This document shows positions 13,053-22,923 of a stretch of DNA of 64,000 nucleotides, one piece after another; position 1 is the first letter of the stretch, and the number at the start of each line of letters is the position of its first letter. Source of the stretch: Escherichia coli (GTDB taxonomy: Bacteria; Pseudomonadota; Gammaproteobacteria; Enterobacterales; Enterobacteriaceae); the NCBI RefSeq assembly GCF_016026235.1, contig NZ_CP065613.1; one strand, given 5' to 3'. Made by a program: the position numbers and the translations under genes. The notes under the pieces were generated by a model. That model saw only the letters and a list, made by a program, of their open reading frames with translations. It was not told where the DNA came from and searched no databases.

Positions 13053-13129
13053 GGCCCTTTAGCTCAGTTGGTCAGAGCGAGCGACTCATAATCGCCAGGT
13101 CGCTGGTTCAAGTCCAGCAAGGGCCACCA
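13053..13129 (+). tRNA. tRNA-Ile2 (anticodon CAU; could also be read as Met)
   Basis: Hand-folded cloverleaf; anticodon loop ctCATaa; close to E. coli ileX-type from memory; ends CCA. Confidence 0.8.
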
Positions 13130-13130
13130 A

Positions 13131-13207
13131 CCACCACTAGCTCATCCGGATAGAGCATCAACCTTCTAAGTTGACGGTGCGAGGTTCGAGTCCTCGGTGG
13201 TGGGCCA
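13131..13207 (+). tRNA. tRNA-Arg (anticodon UCU)
   Basis: Acceptor ccaccac/gtggtgg, anticodon loop ctTCTaa, T-arm ggttcgagtcc, 3' GCCA. Confidence 0.75.
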
Positions 13208-13209
13208 GC

Positions 13210-13285
<76 letters not shown>

Positions 13286-13288
13286 TAT

Positions 13289-13363
<75 letters not shown>

Positions 13364-16017: not shown

Positions 16018-16782
16018 ATGGCAAAACCGGACTGGGAGGCCATCGAATCGGCATACCGGGCCGGAGTCCTTAGCCTCCGTGATATAGGCGAGAAATACGG
16101 CGTTACAGAAGGGGCTATCAGGAAGAGGGCCAAAAAGCTTGGTTGGGCACGCAGTGGCGGTACGCAGGTTTGCAAAAATGGTACGCAAAAAAGGAAAGTG
16201 CGTACCAGCAGAAAGCCTGCCATTACTGGCCTTACACAAAAAAGTACGCAACTAAAAACAGAATCTACACCGGATACGAAACCGATACGCGGAATGCGTA
16301 CCGATCCCCCGACTAACCCATTCCAACCCGGTAACCAGCAGGCATTAAAACACGGTGGTTATGCCCGTCGCCTTCTGCTCAAAGATGAGGTGATAGAGGA
16401 CGCTAAAGCGTTGACGCTCGAGGACGAATTATTTCGCCTTCGTGCTAACAACCTTGTCGCTGCAGAGAATATTGGCCGGTGGTTGGTGTCGCTGGAAGAT
16501 GCTAATGGGGACCAGGAAAGGAAGATGCTGATTGAAAATATCAGCGCCGCCGAGAAAGCAATGATGCGCAATACAGTTCGTATTGAGTCCATCGTTGGCA
16601 CGCTTGCGACGGTAGGAAAAATATTTGCTGATACAGCCTACCGCAAGGCCGCCACTGATAAGGTGTCTCTGGAGGCTGATCGTCTTCGCCGTGATGCAGG
16701 TATTGATGATGGCAATGGAGAGCGTGACCTCAATGACTTCTACTCTGACATCCAAACCGACGCTGAATCCGGCTTTACGTAG
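16018..16782 (+). CDS. Terminase small subunit
   Basis: 254 aa; N-terminal HTH-like segment; immediately upstream of large terminase. Confidence 0.65.
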   Translation: MAKPDWEAIESAYRAGVLSLRDIGEKYGVTEGAIRKRAKKLGWARSGGTQVCKNGTQKRKVRTSRKPAITGLTQKSTQLKTESTPDTKPIRGMRTDPPTNPFQPGNQQALKHGGYARRLLLKDEVIEDAKALTLEDELFRLRANNLVAAENIGRWLVSLEDANGDQERKMLIENISAAEKAMMRNTVRIESIVGTLATVGKIFADTAYRKAATDKVSLEADRLRRDAGIDDGNGERDLNDFYSDIQTDAESGFT

Positions 16783-18136
16783 TTTCTGGACTATGCGGGC
16801 ACGTAACAAAGTGCTTTATGGTGGTCGGTCATCGTCAAAATCATGGGATGCCGCTGGCATTGCCATATTTCTGTCGAATAAATACACCCTGCGTTTTTGT
16901 TGTGCCCGTCAGATCCAGAATAAAATCGAAGAGTCGGTGTATACCCTGCTCAAAATTCAGATAGACAGGTTTGGTCTGCGGCACCGTTTCCGTATTCTGA
17001 ACAACAAAATCATAAACCGGGTTACTGGCTCGGAATTTGTTTTTTATGGATTATGGCGCAACATCGAAGAAATTAAGTCACTGGAGGGGATCGATGTGTT
17101 GTGGCTGGAAGAAGCCCACGCACTGACGGAATACCAGTGGAAAATTCTGGAGCCAACGATCCGTAAAGAGGGTTCGGAATGCTGGTTCATATTCAACCCC
17201 GGACTTGTTACTGATTTCGTCTGGCGCAACTTCGTTGTTGATCCGCCCGAAGGCACTCTCATCCGCAAAATTAACTATGACGAAAATCCGTTTCTGTCTG
17301 ACACCATGCTTAAGGTTATCGACGCGGCGCGACGCCGTGATCCGGATGGTTTTAAACATGTGTATGAGGGCGTTCCGGAGTCTGATGATGATGCGGCAAT
17401 CATCAAACTGTCTTGGATAGAAGCCGCAGTGGATGCGCACAAAACGTTAAATTTCGAACCCAGTGGAAGAAAGCGTATTGGCTTTGACGTGGCTGACAGT
17501 GGTACAGATAAGTGCGCTAACGTTTACCGTCACGGATCCGTTGTTTTCTGGGCCGACGAATGGAAGGCCAAAGAAGATGAATTACTGAAGAGCTGCCAGC
17601 GTACTTATCAGGCGGCGCTGGAGCGTGAAGCAGATATTGTTTACGACTCTATCGGTGTTGGTGCGTCTGCCGGTGCTAAATTCTCTGAAATTAACGCTGA
17701 CCGGAAGAGCGAGAACGCATACGCGCGACGTGTGAATTACCAGAGGTTTAACGCCGGTGCTGGTGTGCATGAGCCAGATGACGAGTACAACGGCATCCCC
17801 AACAAAGACTTTTTCGCAAATCTTAAGGCTCAGGCATGGTGGCTGGTGGCTGACCGTTTCAGAAATACGTTTAACGCCATTAACAACGGAGAACAGTATC
17901 CTGTGGATGAGCTGATCAGCATAGATTCTCGTTGTCCGTTGCTTGAAAAGCTGAAACTGGAACTGACAACACCTCATCGTGATTTCGACCGTAACGGACG
18001 TGTGATGGTCGAAAGTAAAAAAGCCCTCGCAAAACGCGAGATACCGTCACCAAACGTTGCTGATGCATTCATTATGGCCTTCGCGCCAATCGATACATCG
18101 CTGGATATCTGGGAACAGCTGGGGAGACAGGCCTGA
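16733..18136 (+). CDS. Terminase large subunit
   Basis: ORF 16625..18136 with ATPase motif LYGGRSSSKSW and nuclease-like C-terminal domain; start ambiguous (16715/16733/16793). Confidence 0.8.
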   Translation: MTSTLTSKPTLNPALRSFWTMRARNKVLYGGRSSSKSWDAAGIAIFLSNKYTLRFCCARQIQNKIEESVYTLLKIQIDRFGLRHRFRILNNKIINRVTGSEFVFYGLWRNIEEIKSLEGIDVLWLEEAHALTEYQWKILEPTIRKEGSECWFIFNPGLVTDFVWRNFVVDPPEGTLIRKINYDENPFLSDTMLKVIDAARRRDPDGFKHVYEGVPESDDDAAIIKLSWIEAAVDAHKTLNFEPSGRKRIGFDVADSGTDKCANVYRHGSVVFWADEWKAKEDELLKSCQRTYQAALEREADIVYDSIGVGASAGAKFSEINADRKSENAYARRVNYQRFNAGAGVHEPDDEYNGIPNKDFFANLKAQAWWLVADRFRNTFNAINNGEQYPVDELISIDSRCPLLEKLKLELTTPHRDFDRNGRVMVESKKALAKREIPSPNVADAFIMAFAPIDTSLDIWEQLGRQA

Positions 18137-19602
18137 TGGCACGAAACAAACAAGCCCTGCGGCGAACTGTGCAGGCCACAGCTGATGGTTATGAGAATTT
18201 TATTGCCCGCGTAGGGATGCAGACACCTAACCAGCACTCAGCATCCACCTACCGGGCTAATTTCACCAGTCGTAACCGCATGCTGGTGGAATGGTCCTAT
18301 CGTTCATCCTGGATCATCGGCGAAGCAGTCGATGCTATCCCGGATGATATGACCCGCAAAGGCATTCGCATCACTTCGGAAATTGATGCAAAAGATCGTG
18401 GCATTCTCGAATCACAACTGGATGAGTTGCAAATCTGGGATGCGCTGAATGACGTGCTGAAATGGTCGCGCCTCTACGGCGGCGCGGTGGGTTTCATCAT
18501 GATTGAGGGGCAGGCACCAATGACCCCGCTGCGACCCGAAACCATCGGTAAGGGCAAGTTTAAGGGGATTCTCCCGCTCGACCGCTGGATGGTCGACCCG
18601 GCACTGACCCGCCGCATTAAAGATATGGGGCCGGACCTGGGTAAACCTGAGTTTTACGATGTGGTGACCACAGCAACGGGAATTCCTGCCTGGCGCATTC
18701 ATCACAGTCGCCTGATTCGCTTTGATGGCGTCACGTTGCCATTTCAGCAGAAGATGACCGAGAACGAATGGGGAATGTCGGTTGTAGAGCGTATCTGGGA
18801 TCGTCTTACCGCGTTCGACAGCGCTACTGTCGGCGCGGCGCAGCTGGTCTACAAGGCGCATTTGCGTACCTACAGCGTGGAGAAGCTACGCGAGCTTATC
18901 GCACTTGGTGGTCCTGCGTATGAAGCGTTGCTGAAGAATATCGACCTGATTCGACAGTTCCAGAGTAATGAAGGCATGACGCTCATGGACTCGCGGGATA
19001 AGTTTGAAACCCATCAGTACAGCTTCAGTGGTCTGGATGACATCCTTTCGCAGTTTGCAGAACAGATTAGTGGCGCTGTTGGTATCCCACTGGTGCGGTT
19101 GTTCGGACAGTCCCCGAAAGGATTTTCTACCGGTGATGCAGACCTTGCCAACTATTACGATCGCATCAGTTCGTTGCAGGAGAGGCGTTTACGTCTTCCG
19201 GTGCGGCGGATACTGGACATCATGCATCGTTCGGAACTTGGCAAGCCGCTGCCGGACGATTTCACGTTTGAGTTTAACCCGCTCTGGCAAATGTCTGATG
19301 TCGATCGCTCAACGGTGGCGTTAAACACCACCAACGCAATCAGTACGGCGCTGGGTGATGGTCTGATGACACTGAAAGCCGCTATGACTGATTTGCGAGA
19401 AAATTCTGACGTAACCGGCATCGGGGCATCCATTACCGACGAGGACATCGAGAATGCCGAAGATGAAGCGCCGCCCGGCATCGGCGAACCTGATGACGAA
19501 CCGCAGGAGCCGTCAGGCGGAAATCCGGTATCGAACCAGCCTACGCAGGATAGCGAGGGCGGTCGGAGACATCGTAAATGGTCGCTACGATGGTTCAAAT
19601 GA
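18136..19602 (+). CDS. Portal protein
   Basis: 488 aa following terminase; acidic C-terminal tail; ATGA-type overlap with terminase stop. Confidence 0.75.
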   Translation: MARNKQALRRTVQATADGYENFIARVGMQTPNQHSASTYRANFTSRNRMLVEWSYRSSWIIGEAVDAIPDDMTRKGIRITSEIDAKDRGILESQLDELQIWDALNDVLKWSRLYGGAVGFIMIEGQAPMTPLRPETIGKGKFKGILPLDRWMVDPALTRRIKDMGPDLGKPEFYDVVTTATGIPAWRIHHSRLIRFDGVTLPFQQKMTENEWGMSVVERIWDRLTAFDSATVGAAQLVYKAHLRTYSVEKLRELIALGGPAYEALLKNIDLIRQFQSNEGMTLMDSRDKFETHQYSFSGLDDILSQFAEQISGAVGIPLVRLFGQSPKGFSTGDADLANYYDRISSLQERRLRLPVRRILDIMHRSELGKPLPDDFTFEFNPLWQMSDVDRSTVALNTTNAISTALGDGLMTLKAAMTDLRENSDVTGIGASITDEDIENAEDEAPPGIGEPDDEPQEPSGGNPVSNQPTQDSEGGRRHRKWSLRWFK

Positions 19603-20236
19603 CAGTATCACGGAAATTATTGCGGCGCTGGAGCGTTACAGTGAAATCATCACCCCCTGGGCGACAAAGGTCGCGGAAAACTTTACTGCGGACCTAACCC
19701 GGCAGAACGAGAAAGTTTGGCGGCAACACAGCAAGAACATCAGTCGCGAGCTCCGCAATCTTGTGGAAAGCGCTCCTGTGGGCCAGGTGATGCAATCCAT
19801 CATCGCCGAACAGGTCAAGTACATCAAATCTCTGCCTCTCGAGGCCGCAGACAGGGTGTACGACATCCAGAACAAAGCGATAGAGGCTGTTGTCACCGGT
19901 GGTCGGGCGGAGCAGTTTGCTAAAGAGATTGCATCTACCGGCGATGTTGCTAAGTCTAGGGCCGATCTGATTGCCCGAACGGAACTGGGAAGAGCAACGG
20001 GCGCGCTGGATATGGCCCGAGCGATAGCTATTGGCTCGGATGGTTATATTTGGCGTACAGCCGATGATGGCGATGTCCGAGATTCCCACGATCACATGAA
20101 AGGTAAATTCGTCCGCTGGGATTCACCTCCAACTTTGGACGGCATGACCGGCCACGCGGGCGAGCTGCCAAACTGCCGCTGCTATAAAGAGATCGTGTTT
20201 GTTCGCGTTCCATTCGCAATGAAAAGGGCAGCATAA
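19454..20236 (+). CDS. Head morphogenesis protein (Mu F / SPP1 gp7-like)
   Basis: 260 aa ORF; no in-frame ATG downstream of portal stop, so it overlaps portal 3' end by ~149 bp in another frame. Confidence 0.6.
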   Translation: MPKMKRRPASANLMTNRRSRQAEIRYRTSLRRIARAVGDIVNGRYDGSNDSITEIIAALERYSEIITPWATKVAENFTADLTRQNEKVWRQHSKNISRELRNLVESAPVGQVMQSIIAEQVKYIKSLPLEAADRVYDIQNKAIEAVVTGGRAEQFAKEIASTGDVAKSRADLIARTELGRATGALDMARAIAIGSDGYIWRTADDGDVRDSHDHMKGKFVRWDSPPTLDGMTGHAGELPNCRCYKEIVFVRVPFAMKRAA

Positions 20237-20239
20237 CCC

Positions 20240-21460
20240 ATGAAATACTTTTTTGAGACCAGGCTCGGGGAAACCCGATACCGCCTGGCTGACGGCTCGT
20301 TGCTGTGCAAAGACGTGCCGATAGGACGAACAGGTAAGCAGCTCTATGGTGCTGATGACCTGCCAAAACTGAAACCCGATAAGTTCGGTGAAATAGTCGT
20401 CACGCGTTCTCCTGAGCAGGTATTCCATCCGGCCACGCTTGCCTCATTCGAAGGGATGAGCATCACGATCCTGCATCCTGAAGATGAAAACGGGAATGTG
20501 CGGCTGGTAAATCCCGAGAACTGGAAAGAGCTTGCTGTCGGGCACCTCCAGAATGTCCGGCGCGGGACGGGTGAGCAGTCTGATTTGATGCTGGCTGACC
20601 TTATCGTCAAAGACGAAAGCGCCATTCAGCTTATCGAAGATGGCCTGCGCGAAGTGTCGTGCGGCTATGACGCGGAGTACGAGCAGACCGAGCCAGGTAA
20701 AGCCGAGCAGGTCGATATTACCGGAAACCATGTGGCTCTTGTCCCTAAAGGCAGAGCCGGAAATCGTTGTGCAATTGGAGACAGAGACACAATGGCAAAT
20801 CAAAAGAAAAACTGGTGGAACCGCATGCGTGCGGCCATCAAGACAGGAGATGCCGACACCATGAACGAACTGGTGGAGTCGGCTCCCGCATCGGTTACAG
20901 GAGATGAGGGGGATTTGCCGCAGGGCGTTAATCTCAACATCAACCTGTCCCCGCAGCAACCACTACCGGACAAAGCACCAGAGATGGGCGGAGATCCAAC
21001 CGGCGACAGTGATGATGACCTCAAAACATTACTGAAAGCCCTGCTGGCTAAGCTGGAAAGAAATGCCACGGGCGATAACGATAATAAGCCTGACGATAAT
21101 CCGACCGGTGACGGCGAGGACGATGAAGAGGAAACCACGATTACTGGTGACTCAGCCTGGCGTGCCGAAGTTATCGTTCCGGGTATCGATCTGAGCCGTA
21201 AGATGAAACCGACCGCGTTCAAACGCGAGGTTCTGGCTTCTGCTGACAAAACGCTGGTTCGCCAGATAGTCGGTGATGCGGATATCCGCAAATTACCGAA
21301 ACAATCGGTCGACATGGCGTTTAATGCCGTGTCTGAGGTTGCCAAAGGGCGAAACACCCGCGCCACCACCGGCGATGCACAGCGCCTAAACATGGGCATG
21401 ACCAGTATCGCTTCCCTGAACAAACAAAACGCTGAATTCTGGGCAAGCCGTAAAGGGTAA
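20240..21460 (+). CDS. Scaffold/prohead-protease-like protein
   Basis: 406 aa; acidic repeat-rich C-terminal half typical of scaffolds. Confidence 0.5.
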   Translation: MKYFFETRLGETRYRLADGSLLCKDVPIGRTGKQLYGADDLPKLKPDKFGEIVVTRSPEQVFHPATLASFEGMSITILHPEDENGNVRLVNPENWKELAVGHLQNVRRGTGEQSDLMLADLIVKDESAIQLIEDGLREVSCGYDAEYEQTEPGKAEQVDITGNHVALVPKGRAGNRCAIGDRDTMANQKKNWWNRMRAAIKTGDADTMNELVESAPASVTGDEGDLPQGVNLNINLSPQQPLPDKAPEMGGDPTGDSDDDLKTLLKALLAKLERNATGDNDNKPDDNPTGDGEDDEEETTITGDSAWRAEVIVPGIDLSRKMKPTAFKREVLASADKTLVRQIVGDADIRKLPKQSVDMAFNAVSEVAKGRNTRATTGDAQRLNMGMTSIASLNKQNAEFWASRKG

Positions 21461-21463
21461 AAA

Positions 21464-21970
21464 ATGAATAATGTATTTCTGTACCGGATGCCTGTTGGCA
21501 TTGCCGGGGCTGTCTCTCGCCCGCAGGACTTAACCGTCGAACCGGTGGTCCTTAAATCCGATAACGCCTTCGCTGCCTATGGCCTGGCTGGTAAATACGA
21601 TGATGACGGTTTTTTCGTGCCGCTGGCAGATGGTGATACCGCAGACAAGGTGAAGGGGATCTACGTGCGCCCTTATCCGACCACGTCGCAGCCGGACATG
21701 GTTCGCCAGGTGGGAACAGGCAAGAACTTCCCGGGCGACGCCATGAAGCGTGGCTACGTGACCGTTAATCTCGGTTCTGATTTTGATGCCAGCACTATCA
21801 AAAAAGGCGATCCGGTATACGTTGTCGTCTCCACTGATGAATCCATCAAAGTGCCGCTGGGTGGATTCATGTCCACGTCAGTCAGTGGCAAAAACGTGGT
21901 GCTGACCAACGCTGAATTCACAGGTGCCGGTGATGCTGACGGCAATGCAGAAATTTCCTGGAAGATTTAA
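21464..21970 (+). CDS. Head structural/decoration protein
   Basis: 168 aa between scaffold and major capsid gene. Confidence 0.45.
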   Translation: MNNVFLYRMPVGIAGAVSRPQDLTVEPVVLKSDNAFAAYGLAGKYDDDGFFVPLADGDTADKVKGIYVRPYPTTSQPDMVRQVGTGKNFPGDAMKRGYVTVNLGSDFDASTIKKGDPVYVVVSTDESIKVPLGGFMSTSVSGKNVVLTNAEFTGAGDADGNAEISWKI

Positions 21971-21981
21971 GGAACAGACGA

Positions 21982-22923
21982 ATGATTACTTTTGATCAGG
22001 CAACCGTTGACAGCTCTGGTGCCTTTCTCATCGGGGAGCTGGAGCGACTCGACCAGACGCTGAACCTGCCACTGGTGGGGTACACCTGGAGCCGCGATAT
22101 TCAACTGCGTGAAGACGTCTCCATCGCAGATGACATTTCCAGCTGGACGAATACCAGCTTCGCCGCTGCGGGTACTGGCGCAAATCCGAATGGAAAAAAC
22201 TGGGTAGGCAAAGACTCAACCGCTATTGCTGGCGTGAACGTGGATATCGGCAAATCCGGTAACCCGCTGAACCTGTGGGGGATGGAACTTGGCTGGACGG
22301 TCATAGAATTGCAGGCTGCTCAGCAGGTCGGCCGCCCGATTGATACGCAGAAGTATGACGGTATGCAACTGAAATGGCAGATGGATAACGATGAACAGGT
22401 ATATGTTGGCGATTCCGCATTAAACCTGAAAGGCCTTGTTACCCTGGACGGCGTGCCTGTCAACAACGCTGCCAAAACGTGGGCAACCTCAACACCGGAC
22501 GAAATCCGCGCAAGCATTAACCAGGTGCTGTCTGATGCGTGGGCCGCTTCTGGTTACTCTGTGGTTCCGCGTGATTTGCTGATCCCGCCTGAGCAGTTTG
22601 CTCTGTTGTCCAGCATCATCGTTTCATCTGCAGGTAACCAGTCCCTGTTGACGTACCTTCAGACCAACACCATCAGCTATCACCAGAACGGTGTTCCGCT
22701 GAATATCCGCGCGGTTAAATGGCTGAAAGGCCGTGGTGTGGGGAATAAGGATCGCATGGTTGCGTACACCAACGATAAAAAATACGTCCGCTACCCGCTG
22801 GTTCCGCTTCAGAGCGTGCCGGTGCAGTATCGCGGTCTGTATCAGATCGTCACTTACTACGGCAAGCTGGGTGCAGTCGAGCCAGTGTACAAAGAAACCA
22901 TTTCGTACGTTGATGGCATTTAA
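21982..22923 (+). CDS. Major capsid protein
   Basis: 313 aa in canonical position with strong SD. Confidence 0.7.
   Translation: MITFDQATVDSSGAFLIGELERLDQTLNLPLVGYTWSRDIQLREDVSIADDISSWTNTSFAAAGTGANPNGKNWVGKDSTAIAGVNVDIGKSGNPLNLWGMELGWTVIELQAAQQVGRPIDTQKYDGMQLKWQMDNDEQVYVGDSALNLKGLVTLDGVPVNNAAKTWATSTPDEIRASINQVLSDAWAASGYSVVPRDLLIPPEQFALLSSIIVSSAGNQSLLTYLQTNTISYHQNGVPLNIRAVKWLKGRGVGNKDRMVAYTNDKKYVRYPLVPLQSVPVQYRGLYQIVTYYGKLGAVEPVYKETISYVDGI

Follow-up and report, generated by a model that had tools for sequence, protein, structure and literature searches.

The gene for a minor head protein in an Escherichia coli prophage most likely begins inside the portal gene that precedes it. In the window, by which we mean the whole 64,000-nucleotide stretch of DNA that was analysed, the last 149 nt of the portal gene appear to encode also, in another frame, the first 50 residues of a MuF-like protein. 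With a probability of roughly 0.8, we consider this to be a genuine and conserved co-directional, out-of-frame overlap, in which the MuF-like protein would be translated independently, by Shine-Dalgarno (SD)-directed initiation at the ATG at 19454.

The portal/MuF pair lies in the head/packaging module of an E. coli prophage that resembles phage SEN34 (Brunovirus). The segment 19300-20300 is 100% identical to E. coli VL40, related copies are found in 338 of the 5426 complete E. coli genomes, and related phages are vB_EcoM-606R2, vB_EcoM-689R2 and Salmonella phage SEN34. Genes follow each other in the order terL, portal, MuF, DUF2213, cement protein and major capsid, the MuF-like gene standing directly after the portal gene as is typical of its family. 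The features of the region are as follows.

Ends at 18136: terminase large subunit (PF04466)
18136..19602, + strand: portal gene, 488 aa (Phage_portal_3/DUF1073, HI1409 family; PF06381, E=3e-106)
19441..19445, + strand: putative Shine-Dalgarno sequence GAGGA of the MuF-like gene, within the portal codons GAC-GAG-GAC (D-E-D), 8 nt before ATG 19454
19454..19456, + strand: most likely start codon (ATG) of the MuF-like gene, chosen on the conserved ATG, GAGGA, the onset of constraint and the N-terminal length of homologues
19454..19602, + strand: dual-coding overlap of 149 nt, encoding the portal protein from residue 440 to its end at 488, with the stop, and, in the +1 frame, the first 50 MuF-like residues
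19454..20236, + strand: MuF / SPP1 gp7-like minor head (head morphogenesis) gene, 260 aa (PF04233, E=1.5e-18)
19463..19465, + strand: second in-frame ATG (residue 4), not conserved
19493..19495, + strand: third in-frame ATG (residue 14), the RefSeq/PGAP start, giving a 110-nt overlap; not conserved and without an SD
19600..19602, + strand: portal stop codon TGA
20240-21460: DUF2213 protein
21464-21970: cement protein
21982-22923: major capsid protein

The initial annotation, which was made from the sequence alone, had named the two overlapping genes portal and F-like head morphogenesis, correctly so, since Pfam, NCBIfam (TIGR01555, TIGR01641) and PHROGs concur. The portal protein scores 355 bits against PF06381 and 255 bits against TIGR01555 (cut-off 196), and it also matches the solved portals of Pam3 (8hds, E=2e-37) and E217 (gp19, 8fvh, E=1e-14). 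The MuF-like protein scores 68 bits against PF04233 over residues 137-243 (cut-off 29.6) and 48.5 bits against TIGR01641 (cut-off 39.65), and it aligns with PHROG 324, 'head morphogenesis', over residues 6-249 (E=9.5e-86), while a PDB sequence search with the MuF profile returned no match for it. Its AlphaFold2 model, built from a 26-sequence alignment, has a mean pLDDT of 56.6, with values below 50 in the N-terminal half, residues 1-19 included, a confidence too low for it to weigh for or against residues 1-13.

The overlap of about 149 bp that had been described between these genes proved to be exact: 19454-19602 is 149 nt long, and the MuF frame (F frame) is +1 relative to the portal frame, with MuF codon position 2 falling on the portal wobble position. 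The F frame is open from 19415 (there is a TAA at 19412) and its first ATG is 19454, whose T (19455) occupies the wobble position of the portal codon for Asn440 (AAT). From this ATG, the predicted N-terminal peptide of the MuF-like protein reads (M)PKMKRRPASANL... Both in-frame ATGs that had been listed, 19454 and 19463, are indeed present, and a third one, 19493, had been overlooked; these three are the only canonical starts upstream of the conserved N-terminal region. The further statement that no in-frame ATG exists downstream of the portal stop does not hold, as there is one at 19790, though its use would cost 112 residues. Together with GTG 19763, 19778 and 19787, it makes up the canonical starts of the F frame past 19493, and use of any of them would remove 103-112 residues, conserved ones included. 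Between 19493 and 19763, the F frame contains not a single in-frame ATG, GTG or TTG. This rules out the non-ATG start nearer 19590 that had been offered as an alternative, and we rejected that candidate, the only codons there being ATC, ATT, ATA and CTG.

These positions also bear on the idea that the MuF-like gene starts past the portal stop, in which case there would be no real overlap and the upstream open frame would be fortuitous. Three public annotations place the start there: the E2348/69 record has it 38 nt past the portal stop, the SEN34 record has it at an ATG after the portal stop, and the vB_EcoM-689R2 record has it further downstream than that of SEN34. In addition, large co-directional overlaps in annotated prokaryotic genomes are usually mispredicted starts (PMC2478687). 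We nevertheless regard this idea as very improbable. In the window, its first canonical candidates would be GTG 19763 or ATG 19790, at a loss of more than 100 residues, and the ATG of SEN34 is an Ile-to-Met substitution that reads ATT in the window, for which reason a start of the SEN34/vB_EcoM-689R2/E2348/69 type was rejected. Furthermore, protein-level conservation of residues 18-50 persists in homologues with as little as 25-50% identity, and the wobble periodicity of the F frame is found within the overlap. The initial annotation had held that homologues starting at a GTG/TTG codon after 19602 would speak against the overlap; starts past the portal stop occur only in the three records just named, where they are annotators' choices that cut off about 50-80 conserved residues. 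No paper on the start of the MuF-like gene was found in the literature on SEN34.

The alignment of the N-terminus with homologues, which had been proposed as a check, showed that homology runs through the overlap, PHROG 324 aligning from residue 6 onwards. Homologues at 59-70% identity keep the pattern SRQAExRYRTSLxxIAxxVGxI..YDGSND at residues about 18-50, all of them encoded by the overlap, and residues 1-13 are the least conserved stretch of the MuF-like protein. Distant phage homologues carry a K/R-rich basic N-terminal peptide of roughly 15-25 residues, followed by an (A/T)ExxY...L helix. In Burkholderia phage vB_PL1, where the only available ATG overlaps the portal stop by 4 nt, 20 residues precede the corresponding AERQY; in the window protein, 21 residues precede this motif if translation starts at 19454, and 8 if it starts at 19493. 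The length of the portal/MuF overlap differs among the phages compared, as listed here.

Klebsiella ST11-OXA48phi15.1: 149 nt by homology (annotated without overlap)
Haemophilus/Aggregatibacter Aaphi23 (ORF41/ORF42): 80 nt
Edwardsiella vB_EpM_ZHS: 77 nt
Proteus ZX7: 71 nt with its strong-SD ATG
Burkholderia vB_PL1: 4 nt

Conservation of the start itself was followed across 87 loci (the window, 80 relatives on viral contigs, and 6 loci in annotated records of phages and E. coli), and a one-genome-per-species scan added relatives at 59-86% protein identity. Both frames are open across the overlap at all 87 loci and in about 16 further species, and because this two-frame arrangement recurs so widely, the overlap is not a chance open frame. 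This recurrence also makes it exceedingly unlikely that a sequencing or assembly frameshift artefact splits or shifts a gene here, which is a generic worry for long overlaps (PMC2478687) but has nothing specific in its favour at this locus: 338 complete E. coli genomes carry the arrangement, as do isolated phages and members of many genera, and both proteins have full-length homologues.

An ATG equivalent to 19454 is present at 87/87 loci, and the aligned ATG is also kept in Shimwellia, Pantoea, Rahnella, Xenorhabdus, Izhakiella, Rosenbergiella, Morganella, Rouxiella and Arsenophonus, the position in other genera being -120 to -138 nt relative to the Tyr codon of YDGSND, which is invariant. 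The two ATGs that follow are not kept in this way. Position 19463 is ATG at about half of the 87 loci, and in the 67 collinear relatives it is ATG in 33 and ACG in 34; a TTG lying 3 nt upstream (at -96) takes the place of ATG 19493 at about 20 loci, and likewise in SEN34 and E2348/69, and no start of any kind lies near its position in Rahnella, Rouxiella and Xenorhabdus innexi. The predicted anti-SD duplexes have -5.9 kcal/mol for 19454, -3.0 for 19463 and -2.1 for 19493. GAGGA stands about 8 nt before the conserved ATG in 55/56 unique overlap sequences, with -5.9 to -9.0 kcal/mol and always as the best candidate, the sole exception being a second copy in Pantoea stewartii (L100) that has no portal gene upstream. 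Within the collinear relatives, GAG 19441 never changes (67/67), in contrast to the variable wobble sites on either side, and AAT 19453 is found in 67/67 even though a change to AAC would be silent in the portal protein. A start at an upstream, out-of-frame ATG within the portal gene, as the initial annotation had envisaged, is thus supported, and specifically at 19454, by the conserved ATG with its GAGGA, by the onset of constraint at 19453 and by the N-terminal length of homologues. We infer that ATG 19454 is most likely the start that is actually used.

The onset of constraint emerges from phase and polymorphism analyses, which were carried out on 67 collinear, ungapped relatives, as the fast alignment was too gappy for distant loci. 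Upstream of the overlap, synonymous variants are found in 175/201 portal codons (87%), and in 34/39 of the codons just upstream, compared with 3/13 (23%) in 19453-19491 (Fisher p=1e-6 against the 175/201 and p=4e-5 against the 39 upstream codons) and 8/36 (22%) in 19492-19599 (p=1e-14), these p-values comparing sites on one shared tree rather than independent events, since related sequences are not phylogenetically independent. The invariant codons are GAG 19441, GAG 19450, AAT 19453, GCC 19456 and GAA 19459, with neighbouring codons varying freely (GAC/GAT, ATC/ATA). As synonymous variation drops at 19453, a second layer of constraint begins at 19454 and its SD, and not at 19493. Nucleotide diversity by codon phase gives the following picture.

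Portal-only region: 0.032 at portal position 1 (the F wobble), 0.016 at position 2, 0.202 at position 3 (the portal wobble)
19454-19492: 0.019 at position 1, 0.034 at position 2, 0.077 at position 3
19493-19602: 0.13 at position 1, 0.04 at position 2, 0.059 at position 3
MuF-only region: 0.257 at position 1, 0.073 at position 2, 0.036 at position 3

The peak of diversity thus moves to the F-frame wobble after about 19493. The 39 nt of 19454-19492 show no F-frame periodicity of their own, all three phases being quiet, and with only 13 codons in this stretch, its quietness could formally also come from a non-coding constraint.

Against this background, we weighed whether the MuF-like gene starts at ATG 19493, giving a protein of 247 aa and an overlap of 110 nt, or, as a variant, whether 19454 and 19493 are both used to make two isoforms. 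PGAP, which selects starts by model, settled on 19493 in VL40 and in many E. coli genomes, and the RefSeq/PGAP start is its equivalent, with the same 110-nt overlap, in VL40 and S163-2. F-frame periodicity is obvious only from about that point, and the 13 residues that would be lost are the least conserved part of the protein. We still find a start at 19493 unlikely, though well short of negligible. It lacks an SD, its ATG is missing from SEN34, E2348/69 and about 20 other close relatives, which are left with only the TTG at -96, and the more distant Rahnella, Rouxiella and Xenorhabdus innexi have no start there whatever. It would also leave unexplained both the loss of portal synonymous variation in 19453-19491 and the invariant ATG and GAGGA of 19441-19456, and a non-overlapping homologue has the longer N-terminus. 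Metagenome gene calls use the first ATG, as in P0001, whose MuF protein begins MPKMKRR...

Initiation at 19454 remains our preferred reading. On the portal side, the conserved core ends ...ITDEDIENAEDEAPPGIGE, near residue 452 (about 19489), and homology to solved portals (Pam3, E217 and others) stops at or before this residue. Among the phages compared, portal C-termini can be aligned up to ...ITDEDIENAEDE..PP (motif ...DEDIENAEDE..PP), beyond which they are unalignable and differ in length by lineage. In 19493-19602, portal amino acids are variable at 22/36 codons against 49/201 in the core, making the tail far more variable, whereas MuF amino acids vary alike inside the overlap (12/37 codons) and in the F-only region (72/204). 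The portal C-terminal peptide is ...RKWSLRWFK, and its terminal SLRWFK* results from reading the invariant codons of the MuF RYDGSND in the -1 frame. From the variable tail and this SLRWFK* reading, the portal tail beyond about 19489 would be an overprinted, weakly constrained extension and the MuF N-terminus the older of the two. The portal tail thus looks like the evolutionarily younger, overprinted partner, which is the most economical reading of these data, and this basic tail is probably disordered.

The end of the portal frame is itself mobile. In 8/67 close relatives, the stop TGA has become CGA, with a stop 3 nt later and one residue more; in Arsenophonus the stop is earlier (92-nt overlap), in Rouxiella silvae and Morganella it is 12-33 nt later, and in SEN34 its context is TGA-T. 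This variation argues against a programmed +1 frameshift, either inside the overlap or at the stop of the portal gene, AAA-UGA-C, that would join the portal and the MuF domain in one protein. As stop contexts go, UGA-C is weak, prfB being an example. A shift of this kind would have the right direction, the MuF frame being +1 relative to the portal, and portals with a C-terminal MuF domain do exist. However, we found no X XXY YYZ slippery heptamer and no homopolymer of at least 4 in the overlap and its surroundings, where stops close the -1 frame. As RNA, 19405-19525 folds no more stably than its shuffles (MFE -34.5 against -36.3 kcal/mol, z=+0.48), with no sign of a structure that would sequester the SD or ATG. 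In addition, an SD and an ATG proper to the MuF gene are conserved, and at 17/87 loci a stop codon stands directly before the equivalent of ATG 19454 in the F frame. A frameshift is accordingly highly unlikely, and the fusion was rejected as unsupported, given the lack of a slippery motif, homopolymer or structure and the unconserved portal stop. The natural portal-MuF fusion families (PHROG 2662, 859) make the idea of a fusion not absurd, and nothing supports one here.

The portal/MuF overlap, with independent initiation at 19454, can be placed beside several known systems. Genes of the muf type are known directly downstream of portal genes (Jamet et al. 2017, PMC5576092), and portal binding, at 1-2 copies per capsid, is known only for SPP1 gp7, a minor head protein (PMC5576092). 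Like members of the MuF superfamily such as SPP1 gp7 and Mu gpF, the protein studied here matches PF04233/TIGR01641 and is encoded right after the portal, among the packaging/head genes of a temperate tailed phage; it differs in that the 5' 149 nt of muf lie inside the portal gene and in being a short MuF without a toxin domain. Aaphi23, vB_EpM_ZHS and ST11-OXA48phi15.1 share with it the gene order, the +1 co-directional overlap and a basic N-terminal peptide leading into the (A/T)ExxY...L helix, whereas the overlap ranges from 4 to 149 nt when vB_PL1 is included and portal tails are not homologous between the lineages.

Overlapping (overprinted) genes are classical in small phages. As in these and in the holD/rimI overlap of Enterobacteria, two frames here use the same nucleotides, with a conserved MuF N-terminus and a lineage-specific, weakly constrained portal tail, and as in overprinted genes, synonymous variation is suppressed in the partner of the older frame. 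The overlap is much shorter than in fully embedded phage genes and involves only the terminal tail of one protein. A survey of cellular genomes accepted no co-directional overlap of more than 60 nt as genuine, the longest accepted one being that of holD/rimI (Palleja et al., PMC2478687), at 56 nt as against 149 nt here. With the G/GT frameshift pairs of tail chaperones, the locus shares adjacent structural-module ORFs that overlap in different frames; unlike them, it has no slippery sequence or conserved shift site, has its own SD and ATG, and would require a shift of +1. The portal/MuF overlap is real, conserved and mechanistically ordinary, and it is no new kind of system. It was also already known in part, from the RefSeq annotation and from older phage records such as Aaphi23 ORF41/42.

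In the mechanism that we propose, ribosomes would bind GAGGA at 19441-19445 inside the portal gene and start translation of the MuF-like protein at ATG 19454, its first 50 codons lying inside the last 49 portal codons in the +1 frame. The portal frame would run on past its core and across the MuF 5' end as far as the next stop, resulting in a variable basic C-terminal tail whose sequence would largely be set by the MuF frame. It is conceivable, though we think it doubtful, that the overlap also serves as a functional device: ribosomes translating the portal gene may periodically occlude MuF initiation at the SD and ATG, which lie in the conserved D-E-D-I-E-N-A codons of the portal, and so fix a low MuF:portal ratio, and the basic portal tail (..GGRRHRKWSLRWFK) may have a role of its own in the capsid interior, for example in contacting DNA or MuF. 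If this were true, the overlap would be, for a tailed phage or prophage, among the longest co-directional dual-coding segments with selection acting on both frames.

The main value of the finding concerns annotation. Public records use three incompatible starts for this gene, namely the upstream ATG, 19493 and positions past the portal stop, the last of which drop about 50-80 conserved residues, and the comparative evidence points to a single conserved start, 19454 in the window, with a 149-nt overlap. The pair also cleanly contradicts the rule of thumb by which co-directional overlaps of more than 60 nt in prokaryotic annotations count as mispredictions (PMC2478687), which bears on the automatic filters that are applied in prophage regions.

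In the head and packaging module, the overlap between the portal gene and the MuF-like minor head gene is accompanied by a second long co-directional overlap, which is found between the terS-like ORF and the large terminase gene terL:

16018-16782: terS-like ORF, 254 aa
16733-18136: terL (large terminase), from the ATG at 16733 selected by PGAP

Counted from this PGAP start, the two genes share 50 nt (16733-16782), while terL is longer (540 aa) in the annotations of the related Salmonella phage SEN34 and of E. coli E2348/69 than when it starts at 16733. These two overlaps are the exceptions among head-gene junctions that are otherwise close-set: the terL stop and the portal start have one base in common at 18134-18138 (TGATG), and the remaining junctions have spacers of 3-11 nt.

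The prophage also carries a tRNA cluster, located 5' of the lysis cassette:

13053-13363: four tRNA genes (Met-CAT, Arg-TCT, Thr-TGT and Gly-TCC)

The last tRNA, which is Gly-TCC in the window, is called tRNA-Val by PGAP, and the distance from the cluster to terS differs by ~391 nt between the window and the record of E. coli VL40, so the window may belong to another strain than VL40.

Among related loci from other genomes, those of Xenorhabdus innexi and Xenorhabdus szentirmaii (L094 and L095) encode portals with an insertion of ~60-70 aa of different sequence before the tail (about 2260-2595), and yet the portal/MuF overlap is kept in both; their MuF Shine-Dalgarno is stronger still (-9.0 kcal/mol) than that of the window. 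In the second copy from Pantoea stewartii (L100) no portal gene precedes the MuF homologue, whose frame opens just 111 nt 5' of the Tyr codon of the YDGSND motif, with a GTG at -24 as its sole start; probably this locus lies close to a contig end and has been rearranged or is a remnant. As for the window, the 3' end of the MuF-like gene (~20200-20236, residues 249-260) points to a mosaic recombination junction.

In a metagenome-assembled genome labelled as an archaeon (L107), the portal homologue (6-1754) carries ~130 extra aa fused at its C-terminus, which appear NUDIX-like from a reading of their sequence, and the portal and MuF homologues do not overlap because an extra small gene lies between them. 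Finally, the MuF-like protein of the window matches PHROG 2662 and 859, which are portal families; since their profiles carry a C-terminal MuF domain, natural portal-MuF fusions occur elsewhere.
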